Shown here: one piece after another, positions 3,674 to 28,990 of the stretch
Layout: each line of letters starts with the position of its first letter
How positions within the stretch are numbered: position 1 is the stretch's first letter
Assembly (NCBI GenBank): GCA_038325635.1
Contig: JBBQJE010000001.1
Span: 1 to 41,905, forward strand
From: Bacteroidales bacterium
GTDB lineage: Bacteria; Bacteroidota; Bacteroidia; Bacteroidales; Prolixibacteraceae
Length of the DNA: 41,905 nucleotides
Direction of reading: 5' to 3'
Notes under the pieces: model-generated
Seen by the model: only the letters and a program-made list of their open reading frames with translations
Databases searched by the model: none
Told to the model about the DNA's origin: nothing
Translations under genes and position numbers: made by a program

Positions 3674-3683
3674 ACATTTGGTA

Positions 3684-5977: not shown

Positions 5978-5978
5978 G

Positions 5979-6052: not shown

Positions 6053-6074
6053 AAATAATTAAGAACTTTGAATG

Positions 6075-6206: not shown

Positions 6207-6299
6207 CGACTTGTTTTGTATATCTGCAATGGACTTTCAATAAAAATAGAAATACATGAAGACAGAAGCTACCAAACTGATTACCAGAAATAAACAAAA

Positions 6300-6848
6300 T
6301 TACCCGATGGCGGAAGGCTGAAAAAATGAAAAATGGACACTTCCATAAACTCTTTGCTGAACTAAATTCGGATGTGAAGCAAAATTGTCTGTCTTGCCAT
6401 GTTCCAGAATAAGCAAACCATCCGCATTAATTAGTTTGTGTTTCAGAATAAGATCGGGTATTTCCTTAAGGGATTTCATCTCATACGGTGGATCGGCGAA
6501 TATTAAATCGTAGGTTTCGGTACAACTTGGAATAAACTTAAGTACATCATATCTTAAAAGACGGATAACCCCTTCCATCTTAAGCTGTTTGATTACCGAG
6601 GAGATAAATGCATAATGGACATGGTCCATCTCAACAGTTGTAACTGACTGGCATCCTCTTGAAACAAATTCGAAAGAAATGCTGCCGGTTCCCGCAAATA
6701 AATCAAGAACCTTTGTGTCTTCAAAGTCGATCCTGTTGTTAAGGATATTAAACAGATTTTCTTTAGCAAAATCTGTTGTTGGTCTCGCCTTAAAGTTCTT
6801 TCCCGGTTTAAAAAGACGTCCTTTTAATTCCCCTCCGATTATTCGCAT
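6300..6848 (-). CDS. rsmD: 16S rRNA (guanine966-N2)-methyltransferase
   Basis: 182 aa. MRIIGGELKGR start, SAM motif LDLFAGTGS and catalytic FADPPY. Confidence 0.85.
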   Translation of the reverse strand: MRIIGGELKGRLFKPGKNFKARPTTDFAKENLFNILNNRIDFEDTKVLDLFAGTGSISFEFVSRGCQSVTTVEMDHVHYAFISSVIKQLKMEGVIRLLRYDVLKFIPSCTETYDLIFADPPYEMKSLKEIPDLILKHKLINADGLLILEHGKTDNFASHPNLVQQRVYGSVHFSFFQPSAIG

Positions 6849-7708
6849 TTGTAGAGATCAAGAAGTGTAGTAAAATAATGGTCAGGTAATTGATTGAAGG
6901 TATAGCTATAATTGAATAGTGAAGTTGGACGTGCGCAACTTAGTTTTCTGACATATTTTTTAAAAGTCTGGTACATCGGATCAGCCTGCTGGAAGAAACC
7001 ATGAAAAACAATTTCTGTTGTATCGGGCGAGAGTTTAAGTTGGTCGAAAACATAGAAGACAAAATAGGTAACATCATCATCACCGGCATAATTAAACTGA
7101 TTACATACCAACAGTTTTGTACCTGACATGACTACTAATTCAAAATAGGATCTGAAAAAATTTAAATGTACCTGTACTCTCTCGGGGAAATTCTTGTTCT
7201 CTTTGAGTCCTCTTTCAACCAATGGGAACAGATTGTGTTTAATAGTAGCTTTTGGGAAAATTAAAGCTAGGTATTCCTTCAAATTTTCAGGAATAGAAAA
7301 AAGGCACCATGCCTCTGCTTTTGGTAGCAGAGTTCGGTCAATAACGTATCCTTTCTCGATTTCATGGTTAAAACTAAAGTATTTTTCTACATAACTATGG
7401 TGGAAAAAGGCTTGTGGCACCAGGGTGAAATTTTCTGTGGCATAAATTATATCGATACTCTTAAATTTCAGTTTAAAGAGTTCTTCCTGACTAATCAACT
7501 CCCGAACATTCATAAAAAGCAATCGTGGGCGCTTAAGAAAAAAATTAGTGGATTTCAATACAGTGTATTTCCCTTTGGGGATATCCATGATTGCAAAAGA
7601 AAATCCGTCCAAGCTTATTTGAATGGATAAATGGTATAAATTACTCTGTTCGTGATCGAAGGATTTGTCGATAAAACAGATATCTTGCATTTGATTATTT
7701 TTTCGCAA
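6839..7708 (-). CDS. DUF3822-like protein (the conserved Bacteroidota partner of rsmD)
   Basis: 289 aa. The motif YHLSIQISLDGFSFAI resembles DUF3822. It overlaps the rsmD start by 10 nt. The true start may be the second Met at 7690. Confidence 0.55.
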   Translation of the reverse strand: MRKNNQMQDICFIDKSFDHEQSNLYHLSIQISLDGFSFAIMDIPKGKYTVLKSTNFFLKRPRLLFMNVRELISQEELFKLKFKSIDIIYATENFTLVPQAFFHHSYVEKYFSFNHEIEKGYVIDRTLLPKAEAWCLFSIPENLKEYLALIFPKATIKHNLFPLVERGLKENKNFPERVQVHLNFFRSYFELVVMSGTKLLVCNQFNYAGDDDVTYFVFYVFDQLKLSPDTTEIVFHGFFQQADPMYQTFKKYVRKLSCARPTSLFNYSYTFNQLPDHYFTTLLDLYKCE

Positions 7709-12606: not shown

Positions 12607-12715
12607 ACCTCTACATATTCGAGATATTTATTCGTCACAATATTTTTTATACTCTACATAAATTTATAAATATCTCTTTATATTAATACTTTATATTTTT
12701 TTATACCTCTACATA
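12607..12715 (+). promoter_or_regulatory. three direct repeats (core CTCTACATA, two with TACCTCT) upstream of the DUF47/PiT-LuxR operon
   Basis: atTACCTCTACATAtt starts at 12605, ttataC-TCTACATAaattta has CTCTACATA at 12652, and ttataCCTCTACATAtttat has it at 12707. Core-to-core spacing is 43 and 55 bp. The last copy is about 90 bp before the ATG at 12806. Confidence 0.4.
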
Positions 12716-12805: not shown

Positions 12806-13450
12806 ATGTTGTTTAAAAGAGCTAATCATTCTATTGACCTTATAGAAAATTTCCTTAGTACTGTCGATCAGAGTGTTCTGCTATTTAAGGAGGGGGTGAA
12901 ATATTACCTATACAATGACACAGAACGATTCAATGCGAATCTCGAATCACTTGCCAGGTTGGAATCAGATGCAGATACACTCAGAAGAGAAATCGAAAAT
13001 ACCCTTTATAGCCAATCGCTAATGCCTCAACTAAGGAGTGACATTTTAAGGTTATTGGAAGACTTTGATAAACTGATTGATCTTTCAAAAAAGAATTTAT
13101 TTCAGTTTGATGTGGAATCACCAAAAATCCCCGGAATATTGAATCAGGATTTTGTCAGGCTAACTCAAGTCTCTGTTTCAGCTGCTGAATCCGTTATTCC
13201 AGCAGCCAGACTCTATTTCAGAGATCCGCTGGGTGTTAAGGAGCAACTGCACCGGGTCTATTTTTATGAAAAGGAGACCGACCTGCTGGCTGATTCTCTC
13301 AGAAGAAAAATTTTTAACGAGTTACCTGATTTAAAATTAAGTGAAAAATTCCACCTGCGATACTTTTCACTTCATATTGAAATTATTTCTGATCAGGCCG
13401 AAGCATTGGCTGATTTGCTTTCCATAATGGCAATTAAACGAACCGTTTAG
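12806..13450 (+). CDS. DUF47 / PhoU-like (PhoU_div, TIGR00153-type) PiT accessory protein
   Basis: 214 aa, all-helical. Its length and its position 5 nt upstream of a PiT-family gene match the conserved DUF47-PiT pair. Confidence 0.75.
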   Translation: MLFKRANHSIDLIENFLSTVDQSVLLFKEGVKYYLYNDTERFNANLESLARLESDADTLRREIENTLYSQSLMPQLRSDILRLLEDFDKLIDLSKKNLFQFDVESPKIPGILNQDFVRLTQVSVSAAESVIPAARLYFRDPLGVKEQLHRVYFYEKETDLLADSLRRKIFNELPDLKLSEKFHLRYFSLHIEIISDQAEALADLLSIMAIKRTV

Positions 13451-13455
13451 CGTCC

Positions 13456-15213
13456 ATGATCTTACTTTTGTTCATATCAGGTGGTCTTTTCCTTGGATGG
13501 TCTTTAGGAGCCAACGGTGCAGCCAATTTATTTGGTACCGCGGTGGGCACCAAAATAATTAAATTCAAAAAAGCAGCATTAATTTCTGGAATATTTGTAA
13601 TACTTGGAGCATTAATGCATGGACAAGGAGGAGCAGATACCCTCAACAAACTGGGATCAATAGATGCACTTGGCGGAGCATTTACCGTATCATTATGTGC
13701 AGGCTTAACAATTTTTGCGCTCAGCTATTACAAGTTGCCTGCTTCAGCCACCCAGGCCATTGTAGGTGCCATTTTGGGATGGTGTTTCTTTACTAAAACT
13801 GGATTCGACAATACAACACTAAAAACAATTGCAATAAGTTGGATTTCAGCCCCTATACTAGGAGCATTACTTGCGCCACTTCTTTACCTTCTGCTTAGGT
13901 TTTACATGCAAAAAAGCAGGCTGCACATCATCAAACTTGATTTTTTTATCCGCGTGGCACTAGTCGTTGTAGGGGCATTTGGTGCCTATAGTCTTGGTGC
14001 GAACAACATCGCCAACGTAATGGGAGTTTTCCTATCTTCCTTTCCTGATTTAAGTTTTAATCTGGGATTTACTATACTTAGTGGAACCCAGTTGCTTTTT
14101 TTCTTAGGCGGACTTGCTATATCCGCTGGAATATATTCAAATGGCCGTAAAGTAATCGAAACCGTCGGCAACGGAATCATGGAGTTGACTCCGGAGGCGG
14201 CAATTGTTGTTGTATTTACACAGGCACTAATTCTTTTGGCATTCTCTTCCGTTACAATTTCTCATGCCTTACATTCAATCGGAATACCTGAATTACCGCA
14301 GGTTCCTGTTTCCGGTTCACAGGTTGTAATTGGCTCAATCATCGGAATCAGTCTTTTGAAAGGTGTTAATGAAGTTAAATTCAAATTGTTTGGCAATATA
14401 CTGACCGGTTGGATCCTTACCCCTCTAATTGCCCTAATTACCACATTCTTCTCACTCTTTATCGTTCAAAACGTATTTAAGATTATTGTTTCCAAATCGG
14501 AACATTCTCCGGAAACGGCTTTACAATCAGTTGTTACAAGACCAACTGAGGTAATCAATGTTCCTGTATCAGGTAATATTCCTCTTTTCATAGCGAGTAT
14601 CGTCCTTGTTTGTGTTGTCGCACTTATCGTATACCTCCAATTGCGTAAGTACCAGCTCAGCATTCAAATTCAAAGTAAAAAAAGCATTGGAGAGTCGCAA
14701 TACAGTGAGATGCAAAGGGCTCTAACGGACATTGAAATCAAAACCGTTCAACTTGAAAACAGTACGTTGGCCAGCCGACTGCAAGAAAAACGCAACGAGG
14801 TCGTCAATTTTGCACTCAATATCAGCGAACAACGCAGATTTCTTGACATGCTTGCTAAGAGGATAGAAGAAGCATATCATGAAGAGGAGACCACCAAACG
14901 AAAAGGAATTTTGAAAGAATTACTGACATCGTTACATCAAAAGATGTCCTTCTCTCACGAACTGGACGACCTATACCTGAAAGCAGAAAAAATACACCAC
15001 GACTTTCCTGCCAAGATTAATGAGAAATTTCCAGATCTAACTGAACAGGAAAAAAGACTAACCATTTTACTTCGTGTTGGGTTCTCAAGTAAAGAGATCG
15101 CATCAATTATGAATATCACCCCTAAAAGTGTGGAGATCAGCCGATATAGGCTTAGAAAAAAAATAAATATAGAGAATAAAGTCAATCTAACTCAATTCAT
15201 TAAAAGCATTTGA
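13456..15213 (+). CDS. PiT (PHO4) family membrane domain fused to a TM anchor, coiled coil and LuxR/GerE-type HTH
   Basis: 585 aa. Residues 1-345 carry the two PiT signature repeats, but as LGANGAANLFGTAVG (Gly21, nt 13516-13518) and LGANNIANVMG (Asn184, nt 14005-14007). An extra TM helix (IPLFIASIVLVCVVALIVYL) and about 130 aa of heptad-like helix follow. The protein ends in LTEQEKRLTILLRVGFSSKEIASIMNITPKSVEISRYRLRKKI, starting at nt 15037. Confidence 0.8.
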   Translation: MILLLFISGGLFLGWSLGANGAANLFGTAVGTKIIKFKKAALISGIFVILGALMHGQGGADTLNKLGSIDALGGAFTVSLCAGLTIFALSYYKLPASATQAIVGAILGWCFFTKTGFDNTTLKTIAISWISAPILGALLAPLLYLLLRFYMQKSRLHIIKLDFFIRVALVVVGAFGAYSLGANNIANVMGVFLSSFPDLSFNLGFTILSGTQLLFFLGGLAISAGIYSNGRKVIETVGNGIMELTPEAAIVVVFTQALILLAFSSVTISHALHSIGIPELPQVPVSGSQVVIGSIIGISLLKGVNEVKFKLFGNILTGWILTPLIALITTFFSLFIVQNVFKIIVSKSEHSPETALQSVVTRPTEVINVPVSGNIPLFIASIVLVCVVALIVYLQLRKYQLSIQIQSKKSIGESQYSEMQRALTDIEIKTVQLENSTLASRLQEKRNEVVNFALNISEQRRFLDMLAKRIEEAYHEEETTKRKGILKELLTSLHQKMSFSHELDDLYLKAEKIHHDFPAKINEKFPDLTEQEKRLTILLRVGFSSKEIASIMNITPKSVEISRYRLRKKINIENKVNLTQFIKSI

Positions 15214-15290
15214 ATACTATTGAAATTTAAAAAAACCAAAATGTGCGCAAAGATTAAAACAGAATTTAAAAATTTAATTCCCCGATTATT

Positions 15291-16676
15291 ATGAAAAACA
15301 GTTTTAAAATTGGGTTATTTGTGGTGATGATTTTTTCCACCGGCAGCCTGCTAAAAGGTCAGGGTCATGTCGCAATAGGTCATGACTCAGACTCAGTCCG
15401 TTACAATGCTTATGGGCAAAAGGTTATGCGATCTGATGCTGTTCCGGAGTATAGAAACGGTATTCTTTCGTTTGAGTCGCCAGATAAGATGTTTCGGACC
15501 TGGTTCGACCTTCGTGTTAATTTTGACGGAGCCTATTACTTCGACAAGAATGCACTGAATCCAATCGGCAGTGGCGTTATGTTACGTCGTTTGCGATTTG
15601 CCATGAAAACAGTACTTTACAAGCACTGGACCGGTGAAGTTGATTTGAATTTTGCCAATGGTTTGGATGTGAAAGATGCATTCATCGGGTACCGCGATGA
15701 CGATCTGAAATATTATTTTAAGGCGGGTTATTTCAAGGAACCTATTTGTGCGGAAACCACAACAACTTCGCGTTACCAAACATTTATTGAGGAACCATTC
15801 ATGACCACTTTTGCTCCTGCCCGTCAATTGGGCATAGGTGTTTCAAAATGGGATAAGAAGTATTTGGCTGCCGTTGGTATCCATTTTCAGGATGTTGAAA
15901 ATGCTCCATTGGTCGCTTTCACCCAAAATGTAAACAAAGCAGGCGGCACAGATGAAGGTTATTCAGCAAGCGGCAAATTTGTTTTCAAACCGATTAGCGA
16001 ATCGGACAGAGTGATACACCTTGGGGTTTCAGGATCATACCGTACTCCAAAAACAAGTTACGAGTTTCCCAACACTTTAAGATATTCAACTCGTGACATG
16101 ACTTCTGTTAACCGCAAAAAATATCTCGATAGCGACGATATTGCCCACGTGAAAAGTAACACTTTGTTTGGAGGTGAACTTTTTGCCAGCTATAAAAATT
16201 TCAAATTTGCCAGTGAGTATATGCAAACCAATGTTACCAGGGAAACTGGTTTTGAGAAATATAAGGCCAACGGCATGTATGCTTCGGTCGCATATTTGTG
16301 GTTTGGCGGCAGATACAGGTACAACGATGAAGAAGGTGAATACACCCAGATATCCCGCGGGAAAAAATGGGGCGATATTGAAACAGCTTTCCGTTTTGAC
16401 TACATCAATTTTAACGATAAAACTGCACAAATCATGGGTGGTAGCGCCAATGGGTATACTGCAGGAATTACTTACCATGTCAATTACAACGTAAAATTTA
16501 TGCTCAATTACTCCTATATTGATCATGATAGATATGCCAACGGTAAAGGTAAATTATTCGTAGGTCATGACTCCGGTGGAAATCTTACTTCAGATTACAG
16601 TAAGATTACTGAAGCAGCTGGTAAAGGCGGAGAAGATTACGGTTTCATCCAGGCAAGAGTAGAAATTGATTTTTAA
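15291..16676 (+). CDS. phosphate-selective porin O/P family outer-membrane protein
   Basis: 461 aa with a signal peptide. The motifs LRRLRFAMK...GEVDLNFANG...KDAFIGY and a C-terminal aromatic residue (EIDF) are typical of the OprO/OprP-like family. Confidence 0.75.
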   Translation: MKNSFKIGLFVVMIFSTGSLLKGQGHVAIGHDSDSVRYNAYGQKVMRSDAVPEYRNGILSFESPDKMFRTWFDLRVNFDGAYYFDKNALNPIGSGVMLRRLRFAMKTVLYKHWTGEVDLNFANGLDVKDAFIGYRDDDLKYYFKAGYFKEPICAETTTTSRYQTFIEEPFMTTFAPARQLGIGVSKWDKKYLAAVGIHFQDVENAPLVAFTQNVNKAGGTDEGYSASGKFVFKPISESDRVIHLGVSGSYRTPKTSYEFPNTLRYSTRDMTSVNRKKYLDSDDIAHVKSNTLFGGELFASYKNFKFASEYMQTNVTRETGFEKYKANGMYASVAYLWFGGRYRYNDEEGEYTQISRGKKWGDIETAFRFDYINFNDKTAQIMGGSANGYTAGITYHVNYNVKFMLNYSYIDHDRYANGKGKLFVGHDSGGNLTSDYSKITEAAGKGGEDYGFIQARVEIDF

Positions 16677-16688
16677 TTACATAGAACC

Positions 16689-18296
16689 ATGAAAAAGATA
16701 TTATTATTTATTGTTCTTTTCTCCAGCGCTTTACTTTTCAAAGCCTGCGTAAAAGATGAAGTATACGTTGACCCGAACCAACAACCCGGATCGGATATTA
16801 AACTATTGATTAATGAAGTTTCATCCAATGCAGGAGATCCTATTCCAGACTGGATTGAAATTTACAATCCGGGAAGTTCCGATATCGATATTACCGGATT
16901 TGGCGTATATGATAAAGTTGCGGCTATTTTCAAATTCCCCGCAGGAACTAAAGTTCCGGCCAAAGGGTATTTTGTTGTCCTTTGTGATGTGGCCACGGCG
17001 GCAACAGATCCAACTAATGTAGCTGCTTTTGGTATATCATCAGCAGGAGAGGGCGTTTCGCTCGTTGACAAAAATCTGGCAGTAATCGATCAGGTTACTG
17101 TTCCTGCTATGCCACTTGGTATTTCATACGCCCGCATACCTGATGGAGGTCCTACATTTACTAATGCCAATCCGACAAAAGGCAAGGCCAACAGCAATAC
17201 CAATAGTCCGCCGGCAATTGTTGCAACTGACATAACGAATGTAAATGATAATGAGCGGTATAAATTGAATATTACAGTTTCAGATGCATCAGGCTTGGGT
17301 GATGTAAAAATTTTCTACCAATCCTCGACTGAAGCCTCCTTTACCAGCATGGCACCTCTTGGAAGTGGATTATACACTTTCACTTTCCCATTGTTCAAAA
17401 TGGGTGAAACAGTCAAATACTATATTGAAGCAGCTGATGCGACTGGACTAAAATCCTATTACCCAATTTCGGCGCCGGCTACTCCGGGAACATTTACAGT
17501 AAAGGATGGTCTTGCACTTTTTACGAATGTTTCGCTCTCTTCAAATAACCCTCCGGCCAACGCAATGGTTACCGTCAATGCAACTCTATTTGACACCGGT
17601 GGTACTTCTGAAGCAAAATTGTATTACACAGTTAATTCTGAAGATGCCAATGCAAAGCTGACAGTAACGATGTCTTTGGTAAATGGTATTTGGACCGGCG
17701 ATATTCCGGGACAAAGTAACAATGCAATCATCCGATATTACCTAAGAGCCGTCGACAGCAAGGCTCAAAAATCCTATTATCCGATGGAAACATACGATGC
17801 AGCAGGTGTTGTGACCAGTACTTTCAATCATGACCTGGGTTCAACCTGGCCAAAAATCACGGTTGCTCCTCCGCCAAATTGGGCAGCAATCGTTCTGAAT
17901 GAAGTATGTGGTCAGCAGACTCCGGATGATGACTGGGTTGAATTCTTCAATAATTCAGATGCAGAAGTGGATATCAGCGGAATGAAGCTTATAAAGGACG
18001 GTGCTGTTGCAACTCCAATCTGGACAGCCCCGTCGGGGACAAAGATTGCTGCAAAAGCCTATAAAGTCGTTGCAACATTGCCAGCCGGTACCGGTTTGTT
18101 GGCAGGAATTTCAAATACTAAAGTTATCAAACTAGAAATGACGACACCTGCCGGAACCGTTGTAAGTACCTTCGAAAAAACGGCCAGTAATTTTCCAACC
18201 GGACATCCTGCTGACGGAAGCTACCAACGTACACCGAACGCAACAGGCGACTGGGCGGTAAAAACAGCTTATACAAAAGGGGCTGCCAATAATTAA
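16689..18296 (+). CDS. lipoprotein with two lamin-tail domains (LTD) flanking duplicated Ig-like modules
   Basis: 535 aa with lipobox LLFKAC. LTD signatures LINEVSSNAGDPIPDWIEIYNPG (N-terminal) and VLNEVCGQQTPDDDWVEFFNNS (C-terminal). There is an internal duplication (VKYYIEAADATGLKSYYP vs IRYYLRAVDSKAQKSYYP). Confidence 0.7.
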   Translation: MKKILLFIVLFSSALLFKACVKDEVYVDPNQQPGSDIKLLINEVSSNAGDPIPDWIEIYNPGSSDIDITGFGVYDKVAAIFKFPAGTKVPAKGYFVVLCDVATAATDPTNVAAFGISSAGEGVSLVDKNLAVIDQVTVPAMPLGISYARIPDGGPTFTNANPTKGKANSNTNSPPAIVATDITNVNDNERYKLNITVSDASGLGDVKIFYQSSTEASFTSMAPLGSGLYTFTFPLFKMGETVKYYIEAADATGLKSYYPISAPATPGTFTVKDGLALFTNVSLSSNNPPANAMVTVNATLFDTGGTSEAKLYYTVNSEDANAKLTVTMSLVNGIWTGDIPGQSNNAIIRYYLRAVDSKAQKSYYPMETYDAAGVVTSTFNHDLGSTWPKITVAPPPNWAAIVLNEVCGQQTPDDDWVEFFNNSDAEVDISGMKLIKDGAVATPIWTAPSGTKIAAKAYKVVATLPAGTGLLAGISNTKVIKLEMTTPAGTVVSTFEKTASNFPTGHPADGSYQRTPNATGDWAVKTAYTKGAANN

Positions 18297-18334
18297 CTAC
18301 AATGAGATTCTATTCAACCGATCCTTCTGTCCGG

Positions 18335-18360
18335 CCGCAATCGCTTCAAAGCGATTGCGG
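18335..18360 (+). other. perfect 10-bp-stem hairpin between the LTD and beta-propeller genes
   Basis: ccgcaatcgc (18335-18344), loop ttcaaa, gcgattgcgg (18351-18360). No T-tract follows. Confidence 0.6.
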
Positions 18361-18379
18361 ATCTGACAGCTCATGCAGC

Positions 18380-19108
18380 ATGCTTATTCTGATAGTCATC
18401 ATACTATTCTGCCAAAGTTGTTCAAAAAAGGCAGATGACGGATCGGTTAGTCTGATTCCCATTGAAGTACACAAACTGAATCTGCCGGAACCATCGGATC
18501 TCTGTTTTGGTCCGGGAAATCAAATACTCTATACGGTAAGTGATAATACCGCTAAAGTTTATAAGATAACTATTCAAGGTAAAATTCTGGAGACGCTTCC
18601 ATTTGTTGGCAATGACCTGGAGGGAGTATGTTATGTAAATGATCAATTTCTGTATGTAGCACAGGAACGTTTGCGGAAAATTACAAAATTGGATCTTCAG
18701 GGTAATGTGATTGCCGAAGCTTCTATCCCGGTTGAGATAAACGACCTGAATTCAGGATTGGAAGGAATTGCATACAATACCCTAAACAGATGCTTTTACA
18801 TCCTAAATGAAGTGAATCCAGGCCTCTTAATTATAACAGACGAAAATTTTAGTGTGCTCAAAAAGATCACCTTATCGTTTGCGGCTGATTATTCCGGGAT
18901 TTGCGTAGACAACCAGAATCAGGAACTTTGGATTCTCAGTGATGTTTCAGCAAGTGTTAATCGCTGCACGCTCGAAGGGCAACTAATTGAAAAATTTAGA
19001 ATTCCTGTCAACAATCCTGAGGGAATAGCTCTGGATGTAGAAAATCGCCTCCTGTACATTGTAAGTGACCAGGAGGGGACACTTTATAAATTTCAATTAA
19101 ACAAATAA
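18380..19108 (+). CDS. SdiA-regulated-domain (YjiK-like beta-propeller) lipoprotein
   Basis: I start this gene at ATG 18380 (MLILIVIILFCQSCSKK, a lipoprotein-type signal) rather than the tracked 18302, which would translate through the hairpin. Repeated EGI/EGV blades (LEGVCY, LEGIAY, PEGIAL) and a PEPSDLCF-type motif resemble the SdiA-regulated family. Confidence 0.6.
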   Translation: MLILIVIILFCQSCSKKADDGSVSLIPIEVHKLNLPEPSDLCFGPGNQILYTVSDNTAKVYKITIQGKILETLPFVGNDLEGVCYVNDQFLYVAQERLRKITKLDLQGNVIAEASIPVEINDLNSGLEGIAYNTLNRCFYILNEVNPGLLIITDENFSVLKKITLSFAADYSGICVDNQNQELWILSDVSASVNRCTLEGQLIEKFRIPVNNPEGIALDVENRLLYIVSDQEGTLYKFQLNK

Positions 19109-19116
19109 AATCAATT

Positions 19117-19758
19117 ATGGCACAAGAAGAATTAAAAGTCGGTGAAATCTCAAAACCAAGGTTCGAATTTCGCTCCTTCGGTCAAAATTTTGACAATGCT
19201 GCCAAAAGAATGGCACGCTTTTCGGTTCCTATTCCTGAAAAAGTTTGGGAACGTTACTCTGATGAAATCTACATCCTTTCCAGAACCAATGACATCAACA
19301 ATACCAAAGTTCGTGACGGATTGATGGACATAAAAACTTTTGTAAAAAACGTTGATGGATTGGAACAATGGAATCCATTGATGAAAGCCGAATTTCCCAT
19401 CTCCAGAAAAATACTGGTCGAAGAGGTTTTCCCTGCTTTCAAGGTTGATATGCCTGAATTAACAAAGGAGAGTTACATTTTTGAGGAGTTCCTCGAGATG
19501 ATAAATATTCATCCTGATTTACAAGCAGTTAAAGTGCACAAACAACGTTTTGGATACATGGTTAACAATACGATCTGTGAATATGGAGAATGTCTTTTCA
19601 ATGGAGCGCGTGTTGTAACGATCAATTCAGAGTCAACGGAAGTTGAAGACATCAAGAAAACGATCAGAGATATCGGTCTTGCAGGAGTTGAGAACATCAA
19701 TTATTTGCAAGCAATAAAAAGAGTGATTGGAATGATTAACAGACCTTTAGCAAATTAA
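19117..19758 (+). CDS. hypothetical protein, possibly a degenerate CYTH-like paralogue
   Basis: 213 aa. Starts MAQEE with the same 12 nt (ATGGCACAAGAA) as the next gene. RFEFRSF sits where EIERKFL (ExExK) sits in the neighbour, and VHKQRFGY...VVTINSES parallels IDKTRYEV...VVAEVELS. Confidence 0.45.
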   Translation: MAQEELKVGEISKPRFEFRSFGQNFDNAAKRMARFSVPIPEKVWERYSDEIYILSRTNDINNTKVRDGLMDIKTFVKNVDGLEQWNPLMKAEFPISRKILVEEVFPAFKVDMPELTKESYIFEEFLEMINIHPDLQAVKVHKQRFGYMVNNTICEYGECLFNGARVVTINSESTEVEDIKKTIRDIGLAGVENINYLQAIKRVIGMINRPLAN

Positions 19759-19763
19759 TTATC

Positions 19764-20234
19764 ATGGCACAAGAAATAGAACGCAAATTTCTGGTTACCA
19801 GTGACGGCTTTAAAGCTGCAGCTAGTAAATCGACAAGAATAACACAAGGATACCTTTCTTCACTTCCTGAGCGCACAGTCCGCGTGCGAATCAAAGGGGA
19901 CAAAGGATACATTACCATCAAAGGGATTGGTAGCGCCTCCGGGGCTTCCCGTTACGAATGGGAAAAAGAGATCCCCGTGGGAGAAGTGGATGAACTTTTG
20001 AAAATCTGTGAAGCGGGAGTAATCGATAAAACCCGTTATGAAGTAAAATCAGGCATTCATACTTTCGAAGTGGATGAATTTTACGGCGAAAATCAGGGCT
20101 TGGTCGTGGCAGAAGTTGAACTCTCAAGTGAAGAGGAAGCGTACGTCAAACCAGCTTGGATTGGACAAGAGGTGACAGGAGATGTAAAATACTATAACTC
20201 CATGCTGATGAAAACGCCTTTCACGAAGTGGTAG
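19764..20234 (+). CDS. CYTH-domain protein (triphosphate tunnel metalloenzyme, inorganic triphosphatase-like)
   Basis: 156 aa. N-terminal ExExK signature MAQEIERKFLV, RVRIKG, YEWEKEI, FEVDEF and AEVEL strands are typical of small TTM/CYTH proteins. Confidence 0.85.
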   Translation: MAQEIERKFLVTSDGFKAAASKSTRITQGYLSSLPERTVRVRIKGDKGYITIKGIGSASGASRYEWEKEIPVGEVDELLKICEAGVIDKTRYEVKSGIHTFEVDEFYGENQGLVVAEVELSSEEEAYVKPAWIGQEVTGDVKYYNSMLMKTPFTKW

Positions 20235-20239
20235 AAAAA

Positions 20240-20269
20240 ATGGATAAAAGGCACTAGCCTTTTATCCAT
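20240..20269 (+). terminator. 13-bp perfect stem-loop after the CYTH gene (weak or partial terminator)
   Basis: atggataaaaggc (20240-20252), loop acta, gccttttatccat (20257-20269). The sequence that follows is only moderately T-rich. Confidence 0.35.
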
Positions 20270-20294
20270 TCACAATTTCAATAAAATAGAGAAA

Positions 20295-21923
20295 ATGAGC
20301 AGTTTAGAAAAAGAATTGACAGCATCCGAACAACCTGAAAATATTCATGATGTCCTCGATATGAACAATTACCGTATCGAGAAGCTACCAAAAGTTCACA
20401 AAAGCGGTTTCGAGAAATGGATGGCGTTACTCGGTGCACCAATAGCTGCCATTTTCTTTATTTTGATTTACTATTTTTCTGATTTCTCATTTCTGGATTT
20501 CATTGATCATTCGGCGCTAAAAGGGGATGCGCTGGAACGTTTTCACGCACTTGGCGAAGCTAAATTCTTGCGCATCAATTATGCTATGTTGGCTATTTTT
20601 GTTACTGCCATCATTTTGTGGATAACGGAAGCAATTCCGAATTATCTCACCTCTTTTTTTGTCATCATAGCCATGGTTCTCACCGGAGTGACTACCGAAA
20701 AGAATGCCTATGCCCAATTGGGACATCCGGTGATGTGGCTGAACATCCTCTCTTTTATTCTAGCAAGCATGTTGGTAAGCACTAAAGTTGCTAAAAGGTT
20801 TGCCTTATGGTTTGTAATCAGATTTGGGAAAAATGCTACGGGAATTTTCCTGAGTTTCATCGTTATCAATGTTGTCTTGTCTGTATTTATCTCTGCTACC
20901 ACTGCAAAAGCTACTATATTGTTACCTATCTTCATGGTAATTGCGGCAATTTACGGTGCTACCCCTGACAACAGAAACAATTTTGGCCGAAATATCGTTT
21001 TGCAAAATTTGTTTCAGATCAATATTGGAGCCAGCGGGTTTATCACTGGGTCGGGAGCCAATCTCTTAGCCGGTTCAATGATAGCAGGCGCAATGGGATG
21101 GTCGATTTTCAGTTTTCAGGATTGGTTCATTGCGGCCTTTCCTCTGGCGATTTGCCTTATTCTCATTGGATGGATCGTGGGTACCAAAATCATCTTTCCA
21201 ATGAAAGCAGAAGAACAGGTTCCACAGATTCAGGGTGGAATTGATCGTTTAAAACAGGAGTACCGGTTATTGGGTAAAATGAGTTTAAATGAATACAAAG
21301 CAATCGCCATCTTTGTTGCCGTGGTCGCCCTTTGGGCAACAGATAAGCAACATGGCATCTCGCAAACAGCCGTTGCATTTATGGGTGCTTTTGTTGCGCT
21401 CTTACCAGGAATAGGTGTTGTAAAGTGGAATGAAGTTGATATCCCCTGGCATCTTTTGCTCTTCTCGGCCGGAGCCTATACTTTAGGGGCAGGCCTTGAA
21501 GCGACCAACCTGGCATCCACGATTGTCGATGCCCTATTTTCCAAATTCGGCATTTCTTCAACGACCCCCTTCTGGATGCTTTTCTGTGGATTAACTTTTG
21601 CCATGATATTCAGTGCCCTATTTTTCGAATCCAAGACAATGAGAGCCTTAATATTTATTCCAATAGCTATCGGGGTTGCACAAAAATTCAAGATTCCTGT
21701 ATTAAGTCTGGCACTTCCGGTTGCACTCCTGATTGAGCATGTTTATGTTCTTCCATTTAATAGCAAACCTGCGGCACTCCTCTATACTACAGGACATTAC
21801 AGTTGGAGCGACACCTTCAAATTTGGATTTACAATGATGGCTATAAGCTGGTTGACTTTACTACTTTACAGCGAAACCTATTTGAGGTTACTTGGCTACA
21901 CTCCCAATGGTGTATTTTTCTAA
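20295..21923 (+). CDS. DASS/SLC13-family anion:sodium symporter
   Basis: 542 aa, polytopic, with an inverted-repeat architecture and hairpin-type motifs (SATTAKATILLPI, LPFNSKPAALLYTTG) typical of the SLC13/DASS family. The substrate is not inferable. Confidence 0.75.
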   Translation: MSSLEKELTASEQPENIHDVLDMNNYRIEKLPKVHKSGFEKWMALLGAPIAAIFFILIYYFSDFSFLDFIDHSALKGDALERFHALGEAKFLRINYAMLAIFVTAIILWITEAIPNYLTSFFVIIAMVLTGVTTEKNAYAQLGHPVMWLNILSFILASMLVSTKVAKRFALWFVIRFGKNATGIFLSFIVINVVLSVFISATTAKATILLPIFMVIAAIYGATPDNRNNFGRNIVLQNLFQINIGASGFITGSGANLLAGSMIAGAMGWSIFSFQDWFIAAFPLAICLILIGWIVGTKIIFPMKAEEQVPQIQGGIDRLKQEYRLLGKMSLNEYKAIAIFVAVVALWATDKQHGISQTAVAFMGAFVALLPGIGVVKWNEVDIPWHLLLFSAGAYTLGAGLEATNLASTIVDALFSKFGISSTTPFWMLFCGLTFAMIFSALFFESKTMRALIFIPIAIGVAQKFKIPVLSLALPVALLIEHVYVLPFNSKPAALLYTTGHYSWSDTFKFGFTMMAISWLTLLLYSETYLRLLGYTPNGVFF

Positions 21924-21964
21924 TTTTAAAGCATCAACATAAATGTTTCTCACAAAATCAGGAT

Positions 21965-23428
21965 ATGATAGATGAAAATGTAAAGATTCATGATCAGTTT
22001 TCACTGGAAATTAAAGTGGGCTTTGTTGCCAGGAAGAAGCAAAAAATTAACGATTTTGCTTTCAATATTTGGGTATTTATACCTAATAGTCTTGATATTA
22101 ACAGATTCACCTATACCAAAAATGATTTTTACAGGGATATGACTTCCCATATTCGTCTGATTACTCCCTCCTTTCTTCTTCGGAATATTGCTGATCACAC
22201 AACACCACCTGTCAGTTCTTTGGAAAAGTCGTTCAACAGCCTTGCAGTTGCACCAACCCGAACAAACAAAGACAATTACGAATACCAGTTAAAAATGTTT
22301 TTGTCTATCCTGAAGAGTTCTCTCCGGGATGAAGTAGCCCATGCCATCAACAGCAAACTGGATAATGACCGGGATTTTCTGATTCAATCGTATTTGGTGA
22401 ACGTAGAATCAATTGCCACGTATTACCGTTCACTTCGCCGAATTATTAATGCACCATCCATCTCAGATGAATTAATGGATTACTTTCTGTTCGGAGATGA
22501 ATTTATGTCTAACTTGATTGAGTCTCACACTTTCCGATTGATTCAACTGTTAAAGAAGAGTCATCCTGAAAATTATGAAAGGATGAAAGGAGACTTATTA
22601 GGATTGATCAACCGCGAAATTGATTACAAAAAAGAAAAAGGATATCTGGTAGTCGAAAAACAGAACAAAGAAAACAACCAAGAGCTCGTTTTCCGGCAAG
22701 GTATGCTTAAAAAATATGCCGAAAGCAATCTTTTTCTTGATGTAAAGAAGAGAAAAGACGGAGTTTGGGTTGAACAGATTCTGTTCAGCCTTGCAGCAGG
22801 CTTATCCATGATTTTTGCTACAGTTATTGCCTTCTCCTTTCAGCTAAAATATGGCAACCTAACGATGCCTTTTTTCGTTGCCCTGATTGTCAGTTATATG
22901 CTGAAAGACAGGATTAAAGAGTTGGCACGCTTCTATTTTGCACATAAGCTAAACAAGCGCTATTTTGATCACAAAATCAACATCAGCATACACGACAACG
23001 AGATAGGATGGGTGAGGGAAAGTATGGATTTTATTTCAGAACGGAATGTTCCTTTTGAAGTGCTAAATAAGCGGGATCGCTCATCCATTCTGGAGGCAAA
23101 CAACAGAGCTAGCCGCGAACGGATTATCCTTTACCGCACCCAGATGCAATTGAACAGGGAAAGCATAGATGCCAATAGTGAATATCCCATCGCCGGTGTC
23201 AACCAAATCCTACGCCTGAATATTTCAAATTTCATTCAAAAGATGGACAATGCTGAGTTCCCACTCTATTATCCTGATGAAGAAGATGGATATAAGATTG
23301 TTCCGGGGGAAAAAATTTACTACCTAAATATGATCGTACAAGCCAAAGAAGTCGAACAATGGGACTACAAAAGATATAGAATTGTCTTTAATCGCAAAGG
23401 AATTCAAAAAATAGAATCATTTGAATAA
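21965..23428 (+). CDS. uncharacterised membrane protein (two central TM helices)
   Basis: 487 aa from ATG 21965. The tracked start at 21803 would overlap the DASS gene by 121 nt. It has a helical N-terminal half, TM helices ILFSLAAGLSMIFATVIAFSF and MPFFVALIVSYML, and a C-terminal soluble domain. I recognise no family. Confidence 0.55.
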   Translation: MIDENVKIHDQFSLEIKVGFVARKKQKINDFAFNIWVFIPNSLDINRFTYTKNDFYRDMTSHIRLITPSFLLRNIADHTTPPVSSLEKSFNSLAVAPTRTNKDNYEYQLKMFLSILKSSLRDEVAHAINSKLDNDRDFLIQSYLVNVESIATYYRSLRRIINAPSISDELMDYFLFGDEFMSNLIESHTFRLIQLLKKSHPENYERMKGDLLGLINREIDYKKEKGYLVVEKQNKENNQELVFRQGMLKKYAESNLFLDVKKRKDGVWVEQILFSLAAGLSMIFATVIAFSFQLKYGNLTMPFFVALIVSYMLKDRIKELARFYFAHKLNKRYFDHKINISIHDNEIGWVRESMDFISERNVPFEVLNKRDRSSILEANNRASRERIILYRTQMQLNRESIDANSEYPIAGVNQILRLNISNFIQKMDNAEFPLYYPDEEDGYKIVPGEKIYYLNMIVQAKEVEQWDYKRYRIVFNRKGIQKIESFE

Positions 23429-23526: not shown

Positions 23527-24411
23527 ATGAAGATAATCGTCACAGGATCAAAAGGTCAGCTCGGTCGCTCCATTCAGGAACTTGCTATCAGGTATACTGA
23601 TCTTTCATTCGTTTTTACTGATATTGAAGAACTGGATATTTGCGATCCCAGCCTGGTTGATGCTTTCTTTGATGCCGAAAAACCCTCATTTATAGTTAAT
23701 TGCGCGGCTTATACTGCTGTTGACAAAGCTGAGAAGGAAGAATTATTAGCAGAAAAGATAAATCATCTCGCTGTTGCCAATCTGGCAAGGGCATGTAAGA
23801 AATCAGGAGCAAAACTTATTCATATCTCGACTGACTATCTTTTTGACGGAAAAAAATCGACTCCGTACCATGAAAAAGATATTGTCAAGCCACAGTCGGT
23901 TTATGGAATTACCAAATTGGAAGGAGAAACGGCAATATTACGATCCGAAATAAAAGCGATAATTATTCGCACCTCTTGGTTATACTCGTCCTTTGGTACT
24001 AATTTTGTTAAGACAATGATGCGCTTGGGTAGAGAGAAAACTCAACTGGGAATCGTTTCGGATCAAATAGGAACTCCAACTTATGCCGGAGATCTGGCAA
24101 AAATTATTCTTGATATCCTTCAAATGACTTCCAGCGACAGCAAACGCTTTGTTACAGGAATCTATCATTTTTCAAATGAAGGAGTGGCGAGTTGGTTTGA
24201 TTTCACTAAAGCCATTTTTGAATATTCCCCTGAAATAACCTGTCAGGTAAAACCAATTGATACAAGTGCTTATCCTACTCCTGCAACCAGACCGGCCTAC
24301 TCTGTATTGAATAAATTAAAAATCAAATCTACTTTTGGCATCGAGATTCCATATTGGAGAGATAGCCTTAAAATATGTCTTATCAAATTAAGAGAAGATG
24401 CAAACAAATGA
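23527..24411 (+). CDS. rfbD: dTDP-4-dehydrorhamnose reductase
   Basis: 294 aa. MKIIVTGSKGQLG Rossmann start, CAAYTAVDKAE, STDYLFDG and YGITKLEGE (the YxxxK motif). Confidence 0.9.
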   Translation: MKIIVTGSKGQLGRSIQELAIRYTDLSFVFTDIEELDICDPSLVDAFFDAEKPSFIVNCAAYTAVDKAEKEELLAEKINHLAVANLARACKKSGAKLIHISTDYLFDGKKSTPYHEKDIVKPQSVYGITKLEGETAILRSEIKAIIIRTSWLYSSFGTNFVKTMMRLGREKTQLGIVSDQIGTPTYAGDLAKIILDILQMTSSDSKRFVTGIYHFSNEGVASWFDFTKAIFEYSPEITCQVKPIDTSAYPTPATRPAYSVLNKLKIKSTFGIEIPYWRDSLKICLIKLREDANK

Positions 24412-26143
24412 AATTCCCGAAAATGTTCTGCTTAAAGCTAACGAATGGCTGAGTGGAAATTATGATGCTGCTACCAAAGCAGAAGTTAAGAAATTGTTGG
24501 ATAAAGAAGATCCAAATGATCTGATTGATGCTTTTTACCGTGACTTGGAATTTGGCACAGGTGGTTTGCGCGGCGTAATGGGTGTTGGCACTAACCGGAT
24601 GAATATATATACCGTTGGCGCTGCAACTCAAGGTCTCAGTAACTACCTCAATAAAGTATTTTCCAATCTACCGGAGATTAAGGTGGCGATAGGGCATGAC
24701 TGCAGAAATAATAGTCGGTTATTTGCAGAAACTGCTGCTGCAATCTTTTCAGCCAACGGAATTCGAGTATATCTGTTTGAATCATTGCGACCAACGCCTG
24801 AACTTTCATTCGCAATTCGTGAACTTGGCTTGCAGAGCGGGATTATTTTAACTGCTTCTCACAATCCTAAAGAATACAATGGCTATAAAGCATATTGGGA
24901 GGATGGTTCGCAAATTGTTGAGCCGCACGATCTGAATATTATTGCTGAGGTTGAAAAGGTAAAGGTAAATAAGATTCTTTTCAAGGGTCGTCCTGAATTA
25001 ATTATCTCGTTAGGGTCGGACATGGATGAGCGCTATCTAAAAAAAGTCGTTTCCGTTTCGCTTTCACCCGATTCAATCAAGAGGCAACATGACCTGAAGA
25101 TCGTATACACACCTATTCATGGTACAGGAGTTAAATTAGTTCCAATGGCTTTAGCCAAAATGGGATTTACCAATGTGATTCATATACCGGAACAGGATGT
25201 GGTGAGTGGAGAGTTTCCTACGGTTATTTCTCCAAATCCGGAAGAACCTGCTGCTCTAGCTCTGGCATTGAAAAAGGCGAAAGAAGTTGACGCCGATTTG
25301 GTGATGGCCACAGATCCTGATGCCGATCGTTTGGGCATTGCGGTCAAAAACGATAAAGGAGAATTTATCCTTGTTAATGGAAATCAAACCGTATTAATTT
25401 TTCTCTATTATATTATCACGAAGCGGAAGGAGCTTGGATTACTGACCGGAAACGAATATGTGGTCAAAACGATTGTCACCACTGAACTTGCTGCAGAGAT
25501 TGCGACCAAGAACGGAGTTGAATATTATGACTGCTATACCGGATTCAAATACATTGCAGAAGTTATTCGCGAGAACGAAGGGAAGAAAATGTATATCGGA
25601 GGTGGCGAAGAAAGTTTTGGCTTCTTACCGGCTGACTTTGTCCGCGACAAAGATGCCGTCACCTCTTGTGCTCTGATGGCAGAAATTGCCGCATGGGCAA
25701 AAGATAATAAACTTACCCTTTTCGAGTTGCTGCAGGACATTTACCTGACTTATGGTTACTCAAAGGAGAAGATGAAATACATTGTTCGAAAGGGAAAATC
25801 CGGGGCTGAAGAAATTGAGCAGTTGATGGTTAAATTCCGGAATAATCCGCCGGTTCAACTTGCCGGATCGCCATTGGAACGGGTCAAAGATTACGAAACT
25901 CTTCTGGAAAAAAATCTGATTACCGGCGAGCAGAAACCAATAAATCAGAAAACAACTTCAAATGTTTTACAATTCTTCACGGTAGATGGCACAAAAGTTT
26001 CCGTAAGGCCATCCGGTACTGAACCCAAAATTAAATTCTATATAGAAGTTAAGGCACCTATTGAATCGCGGGAAGCTTATGATGAAGTTGAGCTATCAAC
26101 CTCAAAGAAAATTGACGAAGTAATGAACGATTTAGCAATTTAA
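24398..26143 (+). CDS. phosphoglucomutase/phosphomannomutase family (PgcA-like phospho-sugar mutase)
   Basis: 581 aa. Active-site loop TASHNPKEYNGYK, metal loop TDPDADR, sugar loop GGEESFG. It overlaps the rfbD end by 14 nt. Confidence 0.85.
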   Translation: MQTNEIPENVLLKANEWLSGNYDAATKAEVKKLLDKEDPNDLIDAFYRDLEFGTGGLRGVMGVGTNRMNIYTVGAATQGLSNYLNKVFSNLPEIKVAIGHDCRNNSRLFAETAAAIFSANGIRVYLFESLRPTPELSFAIRELGLQSGIILTASHNPKEYNGYKAYWEDGSQIVEPHDLNIIAEVEKVKVNKILFKGRPELIISLGSDMDERYLKKVVSVSLSPDSIKRQHDLKIVYTPIHGTGVKLVPMALAKMGFTNVIHIPEQDVVSGEFPTVISPNPEEPAALALALKKAKEVDADLVMATDPDADRLGIAVKNDKGEFILVNGNQTVLIFLYYIITKRKELGLLTGNEYVVKTIVTTELAAEIATKNGVEYYDCYTGFKYIAEVIRENEGKKMYIGGGEESFGFLPADFVRDKDAVTSCALMAEIAAWAKDNKLTLFELLQDIYLTYGYSKEKMKYIVRKGKSGAEEIEQLMVKFRNNPPVQLAGSPLERVKDYETLLEKNLITGEQKPINQKTTSNVLQFFTVDGTKVSVRPSGTEPKIKFYIEVKAPIESREAYDEVELSTSKKIDEVMNDLAI

Positions 26144-28573: not shown

Positions 28574-28990
28574 TCATGCAATTGCTGCCAAATATTCGCT
28601 GGCGGTCATAACGGGTATTTGACATCCTTTAAAATCTTTCCCGTTTCTGGTTATCAAAAGGTGGCAACCTGCTTTTAAGGCACTAAAATATTGAAGGGAA
28701 TCTTCAAAATCCGGCATATTGGAATTTAGCCCTTTTTCAATGATTAATTCATCCAGATCGCATATTTCAGAGATAATCCTGAATTTTCTTAACTTCTCTT
28801 TCGCTATTTCTGCATTCTCAAATTTTGTCAATAAATAATTTACAGTTGCATAGGACAATGCAGAAACTACTATAGTAATTTGCCCCTTATCTGCAAGCGT
28901 CGCAATCTTTGCAATGGAATCATAAAACGGAAGTCTATTGCCCAATAAATCCAACATAATATTAGTGTCGAGAAATAACCTGGTTCTCAT
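28574..28990 (-). CDS. vapC: PIN-domain type II toxin (VapC-like)
   Basis: 138 aa. N-terminal LFLDTNIMLD acidic motif, a central acidic residue (ICDLDE) and C-terminal ITRNGKDF are typical of PIN domains. A 4-nt ATGA overlap joins it to the upstream small gene. Confidence 0.8.
   Translation of the reverse strand: MRTRLFLDTNIMLDLLGNRLPFYDSIAKIATLADKGQITIVVSALSYATVNYLLTKFENAEIAKEKLRKFRIISEICDLDELIIEKGLNSNMPDFEDSLQYFSALKAGCHLLITRNGKDFKGCQIPVMTASEYLAAIA

Follow-up and report, generated by a model that had tools for sequence, protein, structure and literature searches.

The Pho regulon with OprO/OprP porins (PhoBR-PstSCAB-PhoU, Pseudomonas) is one of the described systems closest to the locus considered here, a run of nine genes at positions 12806-23428 of a 41,905-nt stretch of DNA (the window, in what follows) from a Bacteroidales bacterium of the Prolixibacteraceae (assembly GCA_038325635.1, contig JBBQJE010000001.1). 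Our best reading of this cluster, which we regard as about evenly poised between right and wrong, is that the nine genes form one co-regulated operon, as the computed strand, gaps, and upstream box array suggest, and that this operon would import and hydrolyze extracellular condensed phosphate, most likely tripolyphosphate (PPPi) or short-chain polyphosphate (polyP), perhaps pyrophosphate (PPi). Like the Pho regulon, the cluster has a phosphate-porin member, a PhoU-related accessory, and a carrier-like protein that would inform a DNA-binding output, and its cis-elements are direct repeats following helical periodicity. Unlike the Pho regulon, it contains no histidine kinase, response regulator, Pst ABC transporter, or alkaline phosphatase, and protein scans bore out an earlier remark that genes for PhoB, PhoR, Pst, and alkaline phosphatase are absent from the whole window. 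Its putative sensor and DNA-binding domain lie in a single polypeptide, here called PiT-LuxR, with a LuxR/GerE helix-turn-helix (HTH) instead of a winged helix, and its box differs from CTGTCAT.

The cluster also resembles the polysaccharide or phosphate utilization loci of Bacteroidota that have membrane-spanning sensor-regulators (PUL; the PUS of Flavobacterium johnsoniae, PMC8115612): in both, a single locus provides lipoproteins at the surface, a channel in the outer membrane, a carrier in the inner membrane, enzymes in the cytoplasm, and a regulator that spans the membrane. In F. johnsoniae, the response to orthophosphate (Pi) starvation is run by PhoBR and includes nucleases bearing LTD domains, OprP is encoded in the phoBR operon yet is not induced, and the passages searched describe no cluster of the present kind (PMC8115612). 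The cluster differs from a PUL in having a diffusion porin instead of SusC/SusD or a TonB-dependent transporter; indeed, Pfam and NCBIfam detect neither SusC-like TonB-dependent transporter nor SusD-like lipoprotein domains among the nine proteins. Its sensor would be a PiT-like polytopic domain, and its enzymes are triphosphate tunnel metalloenzyme (TTM) proteins, not glycoside hydrolases or phosphoesterases.

The use of a transporter fold as a sensor and the membrane tethering of a DNA-binding domain, both features of PiT-LuxR, are familiar from nutrient transceptors such as yeast Pho84, from ToxR/CadC with LysP, and from PstSCAB-PhoU-PhoR. PiT-LuxR stands apart from these transceptors and one-component regulators in that a transporter-like domain without the signature Asp is covalently fused to the HTH. 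The carrier of the cluster matches the model of the DASS/SLC13 family (VcINDY, NaDC, NaS1, plant DiT, LaINDY, and Pho87/90/91), and differs from its members by the lack of the SNT Asn, additional Lys/Arg, and no match to an equivalog model. A 156-aa CYTH protein keeps the ExExK motif, basic tunnel residues, and dyad Lys of the triphosphatases NeuTTM, CthTTM, and YgiF. In contrast to NeuTTM, for which no physiological context is known (PMC3440374), it is embedded in a putative transport operon and always paired with a divergent TTM-like protein. Full-text literature searches found no description of the PiT-LuxR fusion or the cluster, and a lead to BT3442 returned only an unrelated MACPF paper. 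The parts thus come from known families, and several defining features of these families fail: the PiT Asp, the DASS SNT, membership of the 213-aa protein in the CYTH family, SusC/D, and PhoBR/Pst. The logic would be that of a Pho-regulon- or PUL-like locus with a new type of sensor and probably a new substrate.

Layout and conservation of the cluster

Nine plus-strand open reading frames (ORFs) are listed between 12806 and 23428 (Table 1). With the starts taken at 18380 and 21965, they are separated by 5, 77, 12, 83, 8, 5, 60, and 41 nt in this order, exactly as had been given in a preliminary description of the locus. The start at 21965 is backed by homologs of the 487-aa protein, the ORF listing also offering 21803; that of the fifth gene is ambiguous, the ATG at 18302 giving a gap of 5 nt and the start at 18380 one of 83 nt. 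Seven of the nine domain calls made earlier were recovered with Pfam and NCBIfam, and the ninth protein stands as an unknown membrane protein, whereas the CYTH-like label of the sixth has backing at the level of fold only. Neither Pfam nor NCBIfam has a family for the 213-aa or the 487-aa protein. Terminator-like matches are as frequent as in shuffled sequence, and none falls in an intergenic gap of the cluster. Sigma-70 promoter-like matches number 46 against about 31 expected, in a scan whose model does not cover Bacteroidota promoters. The sole box array of the cluster sits 5' of the first gene.

Table 1. Genes and upstream boxes of the cluster; positions are those of the window.
Feature	Position	Strand	Basis	Remarks
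Box 1, CTCTACATA	12609..12617	+	Direct-repeat search	Candidate operator or upstream activating site; about -197 to -198 from the DUF47 ATG
Box 2, CTCTACATA	12652..12660	+	Direct-repeat search	About -154 to -155 from the DUF47 ATG; 43 nt past box 1
Box 3, CTCTACATA	12707..12715	+	Direct-repeat search	About -99 to -100 from the DUF47 ATG; 55 nt past box 2
DUF47/PhoU_div protein, 214 aa	12806..13450	+	Pfam PF01865, E 5e-21	Partner of PiT-like protein
PiT-LuxR, putative membrane one-component regulator, 585 aa	13456..15213	+	Pfam PHO4 and GerE	
OprO/OprP-family anion porin, 461 aa	15291..16676	+	Pfam PF07396, E 4e-34	Signal peptide
LTD lipoprotein, 535 aa	16689..18296	+	Pfam LTD, two matches, E 4e-26	N- and C-terminal lamin-tail domains
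YjiK/SdiA-regulated, phytase-like beta-propeller lipoprotein, 242 aa	18380..19108	+	Pfam	268 aa from 18302
213-aa cytoplasmic protein	19117..19758	+	No Pfam model	Probable divergent CYTH-like fold; obligate upstream neighbor of CYTH gene
CYTH/TTM enzyme, 156 aa	19764..20234	+	Pfam CYTH, E 3e-17	NeuTTM (NE1496) homolog
DASS-family inner-membrane anion carrier, 542 aa	20295..21923	+	TIGR00785, 204.4 bits (cut-off 198.6); PF00939, E 1e-51	
487-aa membrane protein	21965..23428	+		N-terminal beta domain, long helical bundle, transmembrane hairpin (267-332), C-terminal beta domain

Conservation of the neighborhood had been set beforehand as a check, and its outcome is clearly positive. GTDB was scanned at one genome per species with an alignment of PiT-LuxR relatives as query, and full-length fusions at 42-51% identity were found in 18 loci, whose hosts are Chitinophagaceae, Saprospiraceae, Lentimicrobiaceae, Flavobacteriaceae, and unclassified Bacteroidales metagenome-assembled genomes (MAGs). 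The order DUF47, PiT-LuxR, porin, LTD, (propeller), 213-aa, CYTH, DASS, (487-aa) is kept in 15 of the 16 loci with enough flanking sequence, the genes on either side varying among them, and recurs in a 5.47-Mb contig (L081) and in dozens of metagenome contigs. Such an arrangement is far beyond chance, and a fortuitous run of same-strand genes was therefore rejected. The cluster is common in Bacteroidota of wastewater, sediment, lake, and marine metagenomes.

The degree of conservation is uneven, with identities across loci of 63-82% for the 213-aa protein, 65-82% for CYTH, 59-76% for DASS, 42-51% for the regulator, 31-71% for the porin, and 27-45% for the LTD protein. Such a gradient is what one would expect if the machinery of the cytoplasm and inner membrane is under constraint and the parts at the surface evolve fast. 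The propeller and 487-aa genes are frequent yet dispensable members, the propeller being the least conserved of all and often missing.

Some of these loci carry additional genes. In two Bacteroidales loci, a tandem double adenylate kinase (389-391 aa) is inserted after PiT-LuxR (L010, 11862-13031; L015, 11853-13028), and a paralog of the 213-aa protein (36-39% identity) lies directly upstream of the 213-aa gene (17928-18557 and 16752-17381, respectively). Extra Phytase-like propeller genes follow the 487-aa gene in L002 (19064-20260) and L004 (19439-20611), one of them with a type IX secretion system (T9SS) C-terminal sorting domain. In L081, the 487-aa gene is absent after DASS, and a 920-aa protein without Pfam match and a Metallophos phosphoesterase are encoded instead (13100-15862 and 16428-17762).

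The PiT-LuxR regulator and its candidate operator

The PHO4 match of PiT-LuxR (PF01384, E 1e-54) spans residues 18-328, that is, the whole polytopic region, and the solved transporter TmPiT (6L85) matches it in two stretches at E 1e-22. The GerE/LuxR HTH (PF00196, E 9e-10) occupies residues 528-581 and is near-invariant among relatives, and the part between the two consists of a poorly conserved linker, an extra transmembrane helix (about 376-397), and a coiled coil. In characterized PiT proteins, the Asp residues of the GANDVAN motifs are needed for transport. TmPiT has GANDVAN twice, whereas the corresponding motifs in the window are GANGAAN and GANNIAN, so that both signature Asp residues are replaced. 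All 15 relatives aligned here have GANN(I/V)AN as the second motif, and so do the PiT proteins linked to the cluster in other lineages; the first Asp is intact in most relatives and degenerate in the clade of the window. Since both signature Asp residues are lost, the PiT domain is more likely a sensor than a transporter, a correction to the preliminary description. In other Bacteroidota, the same module of transmembrane helix, coiled coil, and LuxR domain is fused to periplasmic Reg_prop/Y_Y_Y or TPR sensor domains. PiT-LuxR is best read as a membrane one-component regulator that uses a PiT fold as sensor. Source annotations call it only "PiT family transporter" or "permease/CsgD family regulator", and the best NCBIfam match of its PiT domain is the model of the Bacillus sulfate permease CysP, at 82 bits against a cut-off of 400. 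The DUF47 gene adjoins the PiT-like gene wherever both are present, in 22 of 40 metagenome loci of at least 6 kb and in nearly all GTDB loci.

Three exact copies of CTCTACATA, with the consensus C-Y-M-TACA, were found by repeat search in the spacer upstream of the DUF47 gene. In almost every orthologous locus, boxes precede the ATG of the first gene by about 198, 155, and 100 nt. An unbiased count of 6-mers in the 350 nt 5' of DUF47 from 19 loci returned pieces of the box as the top ten words, 10-23-fold enriched. On the coding strand of the DUF47 upstream regions, C[ACT][ACT]TACA occurs 45 times, or 6.8 per kb, compared with 0.75 per kb on the opposite strand, 0.51 in all other DNA, and 0.52 in other intergenic DNA. 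That the boxes are generic promoter elements was rejected, since other intergenic DNA has them at the same density as the background as a whole. Within the window and 82 loci scanned, the box triple with this spacing occurs upstream of DUF47 only. Three loci have a split cluster (L010, L015, and L157), and in each of them two boxes precede the porin gene by about 100-120 nt, 11 nt from one another and inversely oriented. The position- and strand-specific boxes and their recurrence before the split-off porin gene indicate that the genes of the cluster share a dedicated cis-element. Furthermore, the boxes lie 5' of a Bacteroidota-type -7 element (TAnnTTTG-like), found 25-40 nt before the ATG in many loci, a layout that suits an activator. 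Because boxes and regulator are co-conserved and the HTH is near-invariant, the LuxR domain of the operon itself may bind them. Thus, the dedicated regulator proposed in the preliminary description fits a cluster-specific cis-element, with the contact between regulator and DNA being a presumed one.

The CYTH pair and its neighbors in other lineages

The 156-aa CYTH protein matches NeuTTM (2FBL/3TYP) at E 2e-18, and the alignment pairs EIERK (residues 4-8), QGY, RxR, K, SRxExE, KxR, ExDE, and ExE with residues of NeuTTM. The ExExK motif and Lys-52 are invariant in its orthologs. By homology, it would be a NeuTTM-type triphosphatase with most catalytic residues kept, and to this extent the cytoplasmic triphosphatase postulated earlier is supported; the retention is incomplete at the position of Tyr-28, which is considered below.

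The 213-aa protein upstream of it belongs to a large family, with 3357 clusters at 90% identity in one database, all "hypothetical", and 1188 clusters at 50% identity in another. In a Foldseek search of the PDB, its top 27 matches are all TTM/CYTH proteins, including AtTTM3, class IV cyclases, thiamine triphosphatase, and SaTTM, with E-values down to 7e-5 and TM-scores of 0.34-0.54, from an AlphaFold2 (AF2) model with a predicted local distance difference test score (pLDDT) of only 52. The first strand reads R-F-E-F-R, not ExExK. The invariant or near-invariant residues across the superfamily are R15, E17, R19, Y52, N62, K64, R66, K73, E83, W85, F93, P94, K142, R144, E155, E172, N193, and Y196, and the invariant Arg, Lys, and Glu alternate on predicted strands, which fits the strands of a tunnel. 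A CYTH-like nature of this protein is plausible but unproven; the label given to it earlier has backing from the fold and none from any sequence method.

A metagenome scan with a six-sequence alignment of a distant 213-aa subfamily as query gave 40 loci of at least 6 kb, and in all 40 the 213-aa gene is directly followed by CYTH. In contigs of higher GC content, what follows the pair varies. In L088, L092, and L105 it is DASS, DUF47, PiT without LuxR, porin, LTD, and propeller; in L087, L093, L107, and L095 it is TctC, TctB, TctA, DUF47, and PiT with a different C-terminal extension; and in L083 it is an ABC importer together with a PhoU-domain Na/Pi cotransporter. The neighbors of the pair in L156 are a guanylate-kinase-like protein, a histidine phosphatase, and a CHAD protein, CHAD being a specific polyP-binding module (PMC6537752). 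An enzyme pair that stays constant while the polyanion importers beside it are exchanged, in the company of phosphate-related membrane proteins, is the classic mark of a module for uptake plus catabolism, and these neighbors tie the module to phosphate independently of the window.

Two further observations were made on these contigs. The PiT proteins of L087 (9056-10528), L093 (10837-12309), and L095 (5873-7357, minus strand) carry GANN(I/V)AN and a non-LuxR C-terminal extension of about 150 aa without Pfam match, which may serve the same sensor fold as a different output domain. On L092, a 105-kb contig with a GC content of 0.60, GatE-like and GatD-like genes (2836-4737 and 6230-7612) lie a few kb upstream of the cluster with porin-like and LTD genes; the GatD/GatE type of amidotransferase is regarded as archaeal.

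The carrier, the porin, and the surface lipoproteins

The DASS protein matches TIGR00785 over its full length, and two hairpin-helix motifs are recognizable. In alignments to NaDC3, NaDC1, and NaS1, SAT(TAK) and SKT(MR) stand in place of the SNT motifs, both Asn being lost, and in the alignment to solved DASS proteins a later PPN becomes SKPA. SAT and SKT are identical in 16 of 16 orthologs, and all altered motifs are invariant or nearly so, with one Lys-to-Arg exchange. A cytoplasmic N-terminal motif, FDxLDMNNYRxEKL, is likewise conserved in the 16 orthologs. Hairpin 1 resembles that of the Na+-independent plant DiT2.1 (STTARA vs ATTAKA). The extra Lys/Arg in the hairpins would suit a substrate of higher charge and transport without Na+. 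The preliminary description had spoken of an anion symporter; with its SNT motifs replaced, the protein is not a typical Na+ symporter. It had also held that a carboxylate or sulfate carrier would count against its reading, and no characterized carboxylate or sulfate equivalog model of NCBIfam was matched; the hairpins are atypical and more basic, and the substrate proposed here is a putative one.

The 487-aa membrane protein has 1750 homologs, none of them annotated. Its AF2 model (pLDDT 85.5) has no significant Foldseek match in the PDB, and a Mrs2/CorA-like fold was not upheld, such matches having a probability of at most 0.25. The gene adjoins DASS in 9 of 15 GTDB loci, and in L009 and L015 it is divergent from DUF47, out of the same spacer. 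Its place in the cluster as first described is hence that of a frequent member, not a universal one.

The Porin_O_P match of the porin covers 352 of 370 profile positions; OprP (2O4V) is matched at E 3e-6, in an alignment too divergent for residue-level transfer. The sequence that begins with the lipobox Cys of the LTD lipoprotein is C-V-K-D-E, and C-(V/I)-K-D-(E/D) is found in 14 of 17 sequences (the window and 16 orthologs). C-V-K-D-E resembles the surface-export signal of Bacteroidota, and the LTD lipoprotein is probably surface-exposed. In Flavobacterium, depletion of Pi induces nucleases that bear LTD domains (PMC8115612). The propeller matches PF06977 (SdiA-regulated, E 7e-26), PF13449 (Phytase-like, E 6e-10), and E. 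coli YjiK (3QQZ, E 4e-12).

Possible function and alternative explanations

In the proposed uptake of condensed phosphate, the LTD lipoprotein and the YjiK/phytase-like propeller would bind the polyanion at the cell surface or trim it there, and the OprO/P-type porin, judged by homology, would admit it to the periplasm. The DASS carrier would then move it across the inner membrane, probably independently of Na+ and possibly in exchange for Pi. In the cytoplasm, the NeuTTM-type triphosphatase and its obligate CYTH-like partner would cleave it to PPi and Pi. The transport-crippled PiT-like domain, modulated by its DUF47 partner, is predicted to read phosphate-anion occupancy and to pass the signal through the extra transmembrane helix and the coiled coil to the LuxR HTH, which may bind the three C-Y-M-TACA boxes and activate the operon, its own gene included; both the binding partner and the sign of regulation are presumed. 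An outer-membrane-to-cytoplasm route for a phosphate compound had been suggested before, and synteny, boxes, residues, and neighbors speak for it; the particular phosphorus compound, the direction of transport, and the roles of the lipoproteins are what we infer. A wider view, against which we lean slightly, is that this is the first dedicated bacterial pathway for uptake of extracellular tri- or polyphosphate, with a non-transporting PiT-LuxR sensor and a heteromeric TTM-pair core served by interchangeable importers.

Several points weigh against uptake of condensed phosphate. The support is computational, and every related locus comes from a MAG or a metagenome contig. Classically, both DASS and TctABC transport carboxylates, and we know of no member of either that carries PPi or PPPi. 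The cluster has no gene for an extracellular or periplasmic polyphosphatase, PPX, or PPK, and some loci lack the propeller or the 487-aa protein. The equivalent of Tyr-28 of the catalytic dyad proposed for NeuTTM is Tyr in 13 of 15 CYTH orthologs and Phe in the other two, both from Flavobacteriaceae loci. For the 213-aa protein, no link to CYTH was found by Pfam, NCBIfam, phmmer, or two PDB profile searches, and hhalign of a narrow and then a 98-sequence profile against the CYTH family gave probabilities below 1%, so that the CYTH-like fold call depends on the low-confidence model. The boxes could be bound by another factor, for example PhoB, and direct 7-mers at 11-nt spacing also recall PhoB boxes. 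Finally, E. coli pyrophosphatase already hydrolyzes PPPi (PMC3440374), and a dedicated enzyme is thus not obviously required.

Among other explanations, that the system handles Pi only is unlikely in our estimation. The porin and DASS would then serve Pi uptake or homeostasis under a PiT-type Pi sensor, and the CYTH pair would clear or sense internal triphosphate or products of polyP breakdown. Eukaryotic DASS members do carry Pi, as the yeast SPX-DASS carriers Pho87/90/91 illustrate. Porin_O_P, DUF47, and PiT are all Pi-related families, the Na/Pi cotransporter-PhoU protein adjoins the CYTH pair in L083, and NeuTTM has been proposed as a metabolite-proofreading enzyme (PMC3440374). However, Pi uptake leaves unexplained why the CYTH pair is constant (40 of 40 loci) and the importer varies among DASS, TctABC, and ABC, why two surface lipoproteins are needed, and why TctABC and an ABC type not known as Pi carriers are used. 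Uptake of an organic polyanion, be it phytate or lower inositol phosphates, a phosphorylated carboxylate, or nucleotides and products of extracellular DNA, appears distinctly unlikely. The propeller would be a phytase-like esterase, with an organic triphosphate or nucleoside triphosphates (NTPs) as substrate of the TTM enzymes. The Phytase-like matches of the propeller and the extra propellers of L002 and L004 agree with this, as do the tandem adenylate kinase genes of L010 and L015 and the carboxylate-type carriers DASS and TctABC; CthTTM hydrolyzes NTPs too (PMC3440374), and LTD domains occur in Pi-starvation nucleases (PMC8115612). On the other hand, the CHAD neighbor points to inorganic polyP (PMC6537752), and CYTH is closest to the PPPi-specific NeuTTM, with the dyad Lys in all orthologs and the Tyr in 13 of 15. 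Moreover, Pfam and NCBIfam detect no nuclease, histidine-acid or protein tyrosine phosphatase-like (PTP) phytase, or nucleotidase domain in the cluster, and the putative esterase, the propeller, is its least conserved and often absent member.

In our view it is very improbable that the role of the module is the synthesis or export of a condensed phosphate, or signaling by triphosphate, with the TTM pair as a polymerase or cyclase like Vtc4 or CyaB and the membrane proteins as exporters. TTM domains can indeed polymerize polyP (yeast Vtc4) or cyclize ATP (CyaB), the 487-aa membrane protein has no known fold, and the DASS hairpins resemble those of exchanger-type carriers. But the porin, the surface-exported lipoproteins, and importers with solute-binding proteins (TctC and that of the ABC type) indicate uptake, and CYTH is like NeuTTM, which has no significant cyclase activity (PMC3440374). 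We give even less credence to sulfate or another oxyanion (thiosulfate, arsenate, or molybdate) as the substrate, which would make the PiT-like domain CysP-like and the DASS carrier one of the Na/sulfate type. The CysP model is the best NCBIfam match of the PiT domain, albeit far under its cut-off, and DASS matches Pfam Na_sulph_symp. Against this, the DASS protein here lacks the SNT motifs of the solved sulfate carrier SLC13A1, the porin is of a phosphate-selective family, no sulfate-assimilation gene is nearby in any locus, and the CYTH, CHAD, PhoU, and Na/Pi associations are all phosphate-related. A role as an anti-phage defense system was excluded, since none of the five cluster proteins tested matched a PADLOC model.

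Other features of the window

Upstream of the cluster, a 555-nt AT-rich spacer separates it from a divergent rpsA gene, and an Rfam scan of this leader found no RNA element. Downstream on the same strand are housekeeping genes: rmlD, phosphoglucomutase, a 3-keto-disaccharide hydrolase family protein, and guaA. The rmlD (23527-24411) and phosphoglucomutase (24398-26143) ORFs overlap by 14 nt (24398-24411), and the true start of the latter may be farther downstream. Between guaA and a Metallophos gene, a PIN_3-domain toxin-like ORF on the minus strand (28574-28990) may be what is left of a toxin-antitoxin system. Two adjacent plus-strand ORFs (31722-32432 and 32439-33635, Pfam profile positions 1-223 and 230-384) each cover a part of an AMP-binding (acyl-CoA synthetase-type) enzyme, which suggests a frameshift or stop, that is, a pseudogene or a sequencing error. 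Tandem tRNA-Asp(GTC) genes with equal Rfam scores lie 22 nt apart on the minus strand (5978-6052 and 6074-6148). A LytTR-domain protein (4952-5812, minus strand) and a T9SS plug-domain protein (40081-41361, plus strand) appear unrelated to the cluster and fit an origin in Bacteroidota.

Significance

A 2026 paper states that the mechanisms of access to exogenous polyP, including whether polyP enters cells, are unknown (PMC13318637), and the significance of NeuTTM-type specific inorganic triphosphatases has been called "by no means clear" (PMC3440374). With the genes named here, both microbial access to dissolved polyP and the purpose of NeuTTM-type triphosphatases become testable. If uptake of condensed phosphate by this cluster is true, the specific triphosphatases would gain a long-missing physiological role, and condensed-phosphate scavenging would have consequences for phosphorus cycling and for enhanced biological phosphorus removal. 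These consequences would follow from how common the cluster is in metagenomes and from the thousands of homologs of its signature proteins. Whatever the substrate, the PiT-LuxR fusion with its conserved candidate operator, the 213-aa family, and the 487-aa family are new objects of study, and PiT-LuxR makes a clean candidate for a membrane one-component phosphate sensor derived from a transporter.

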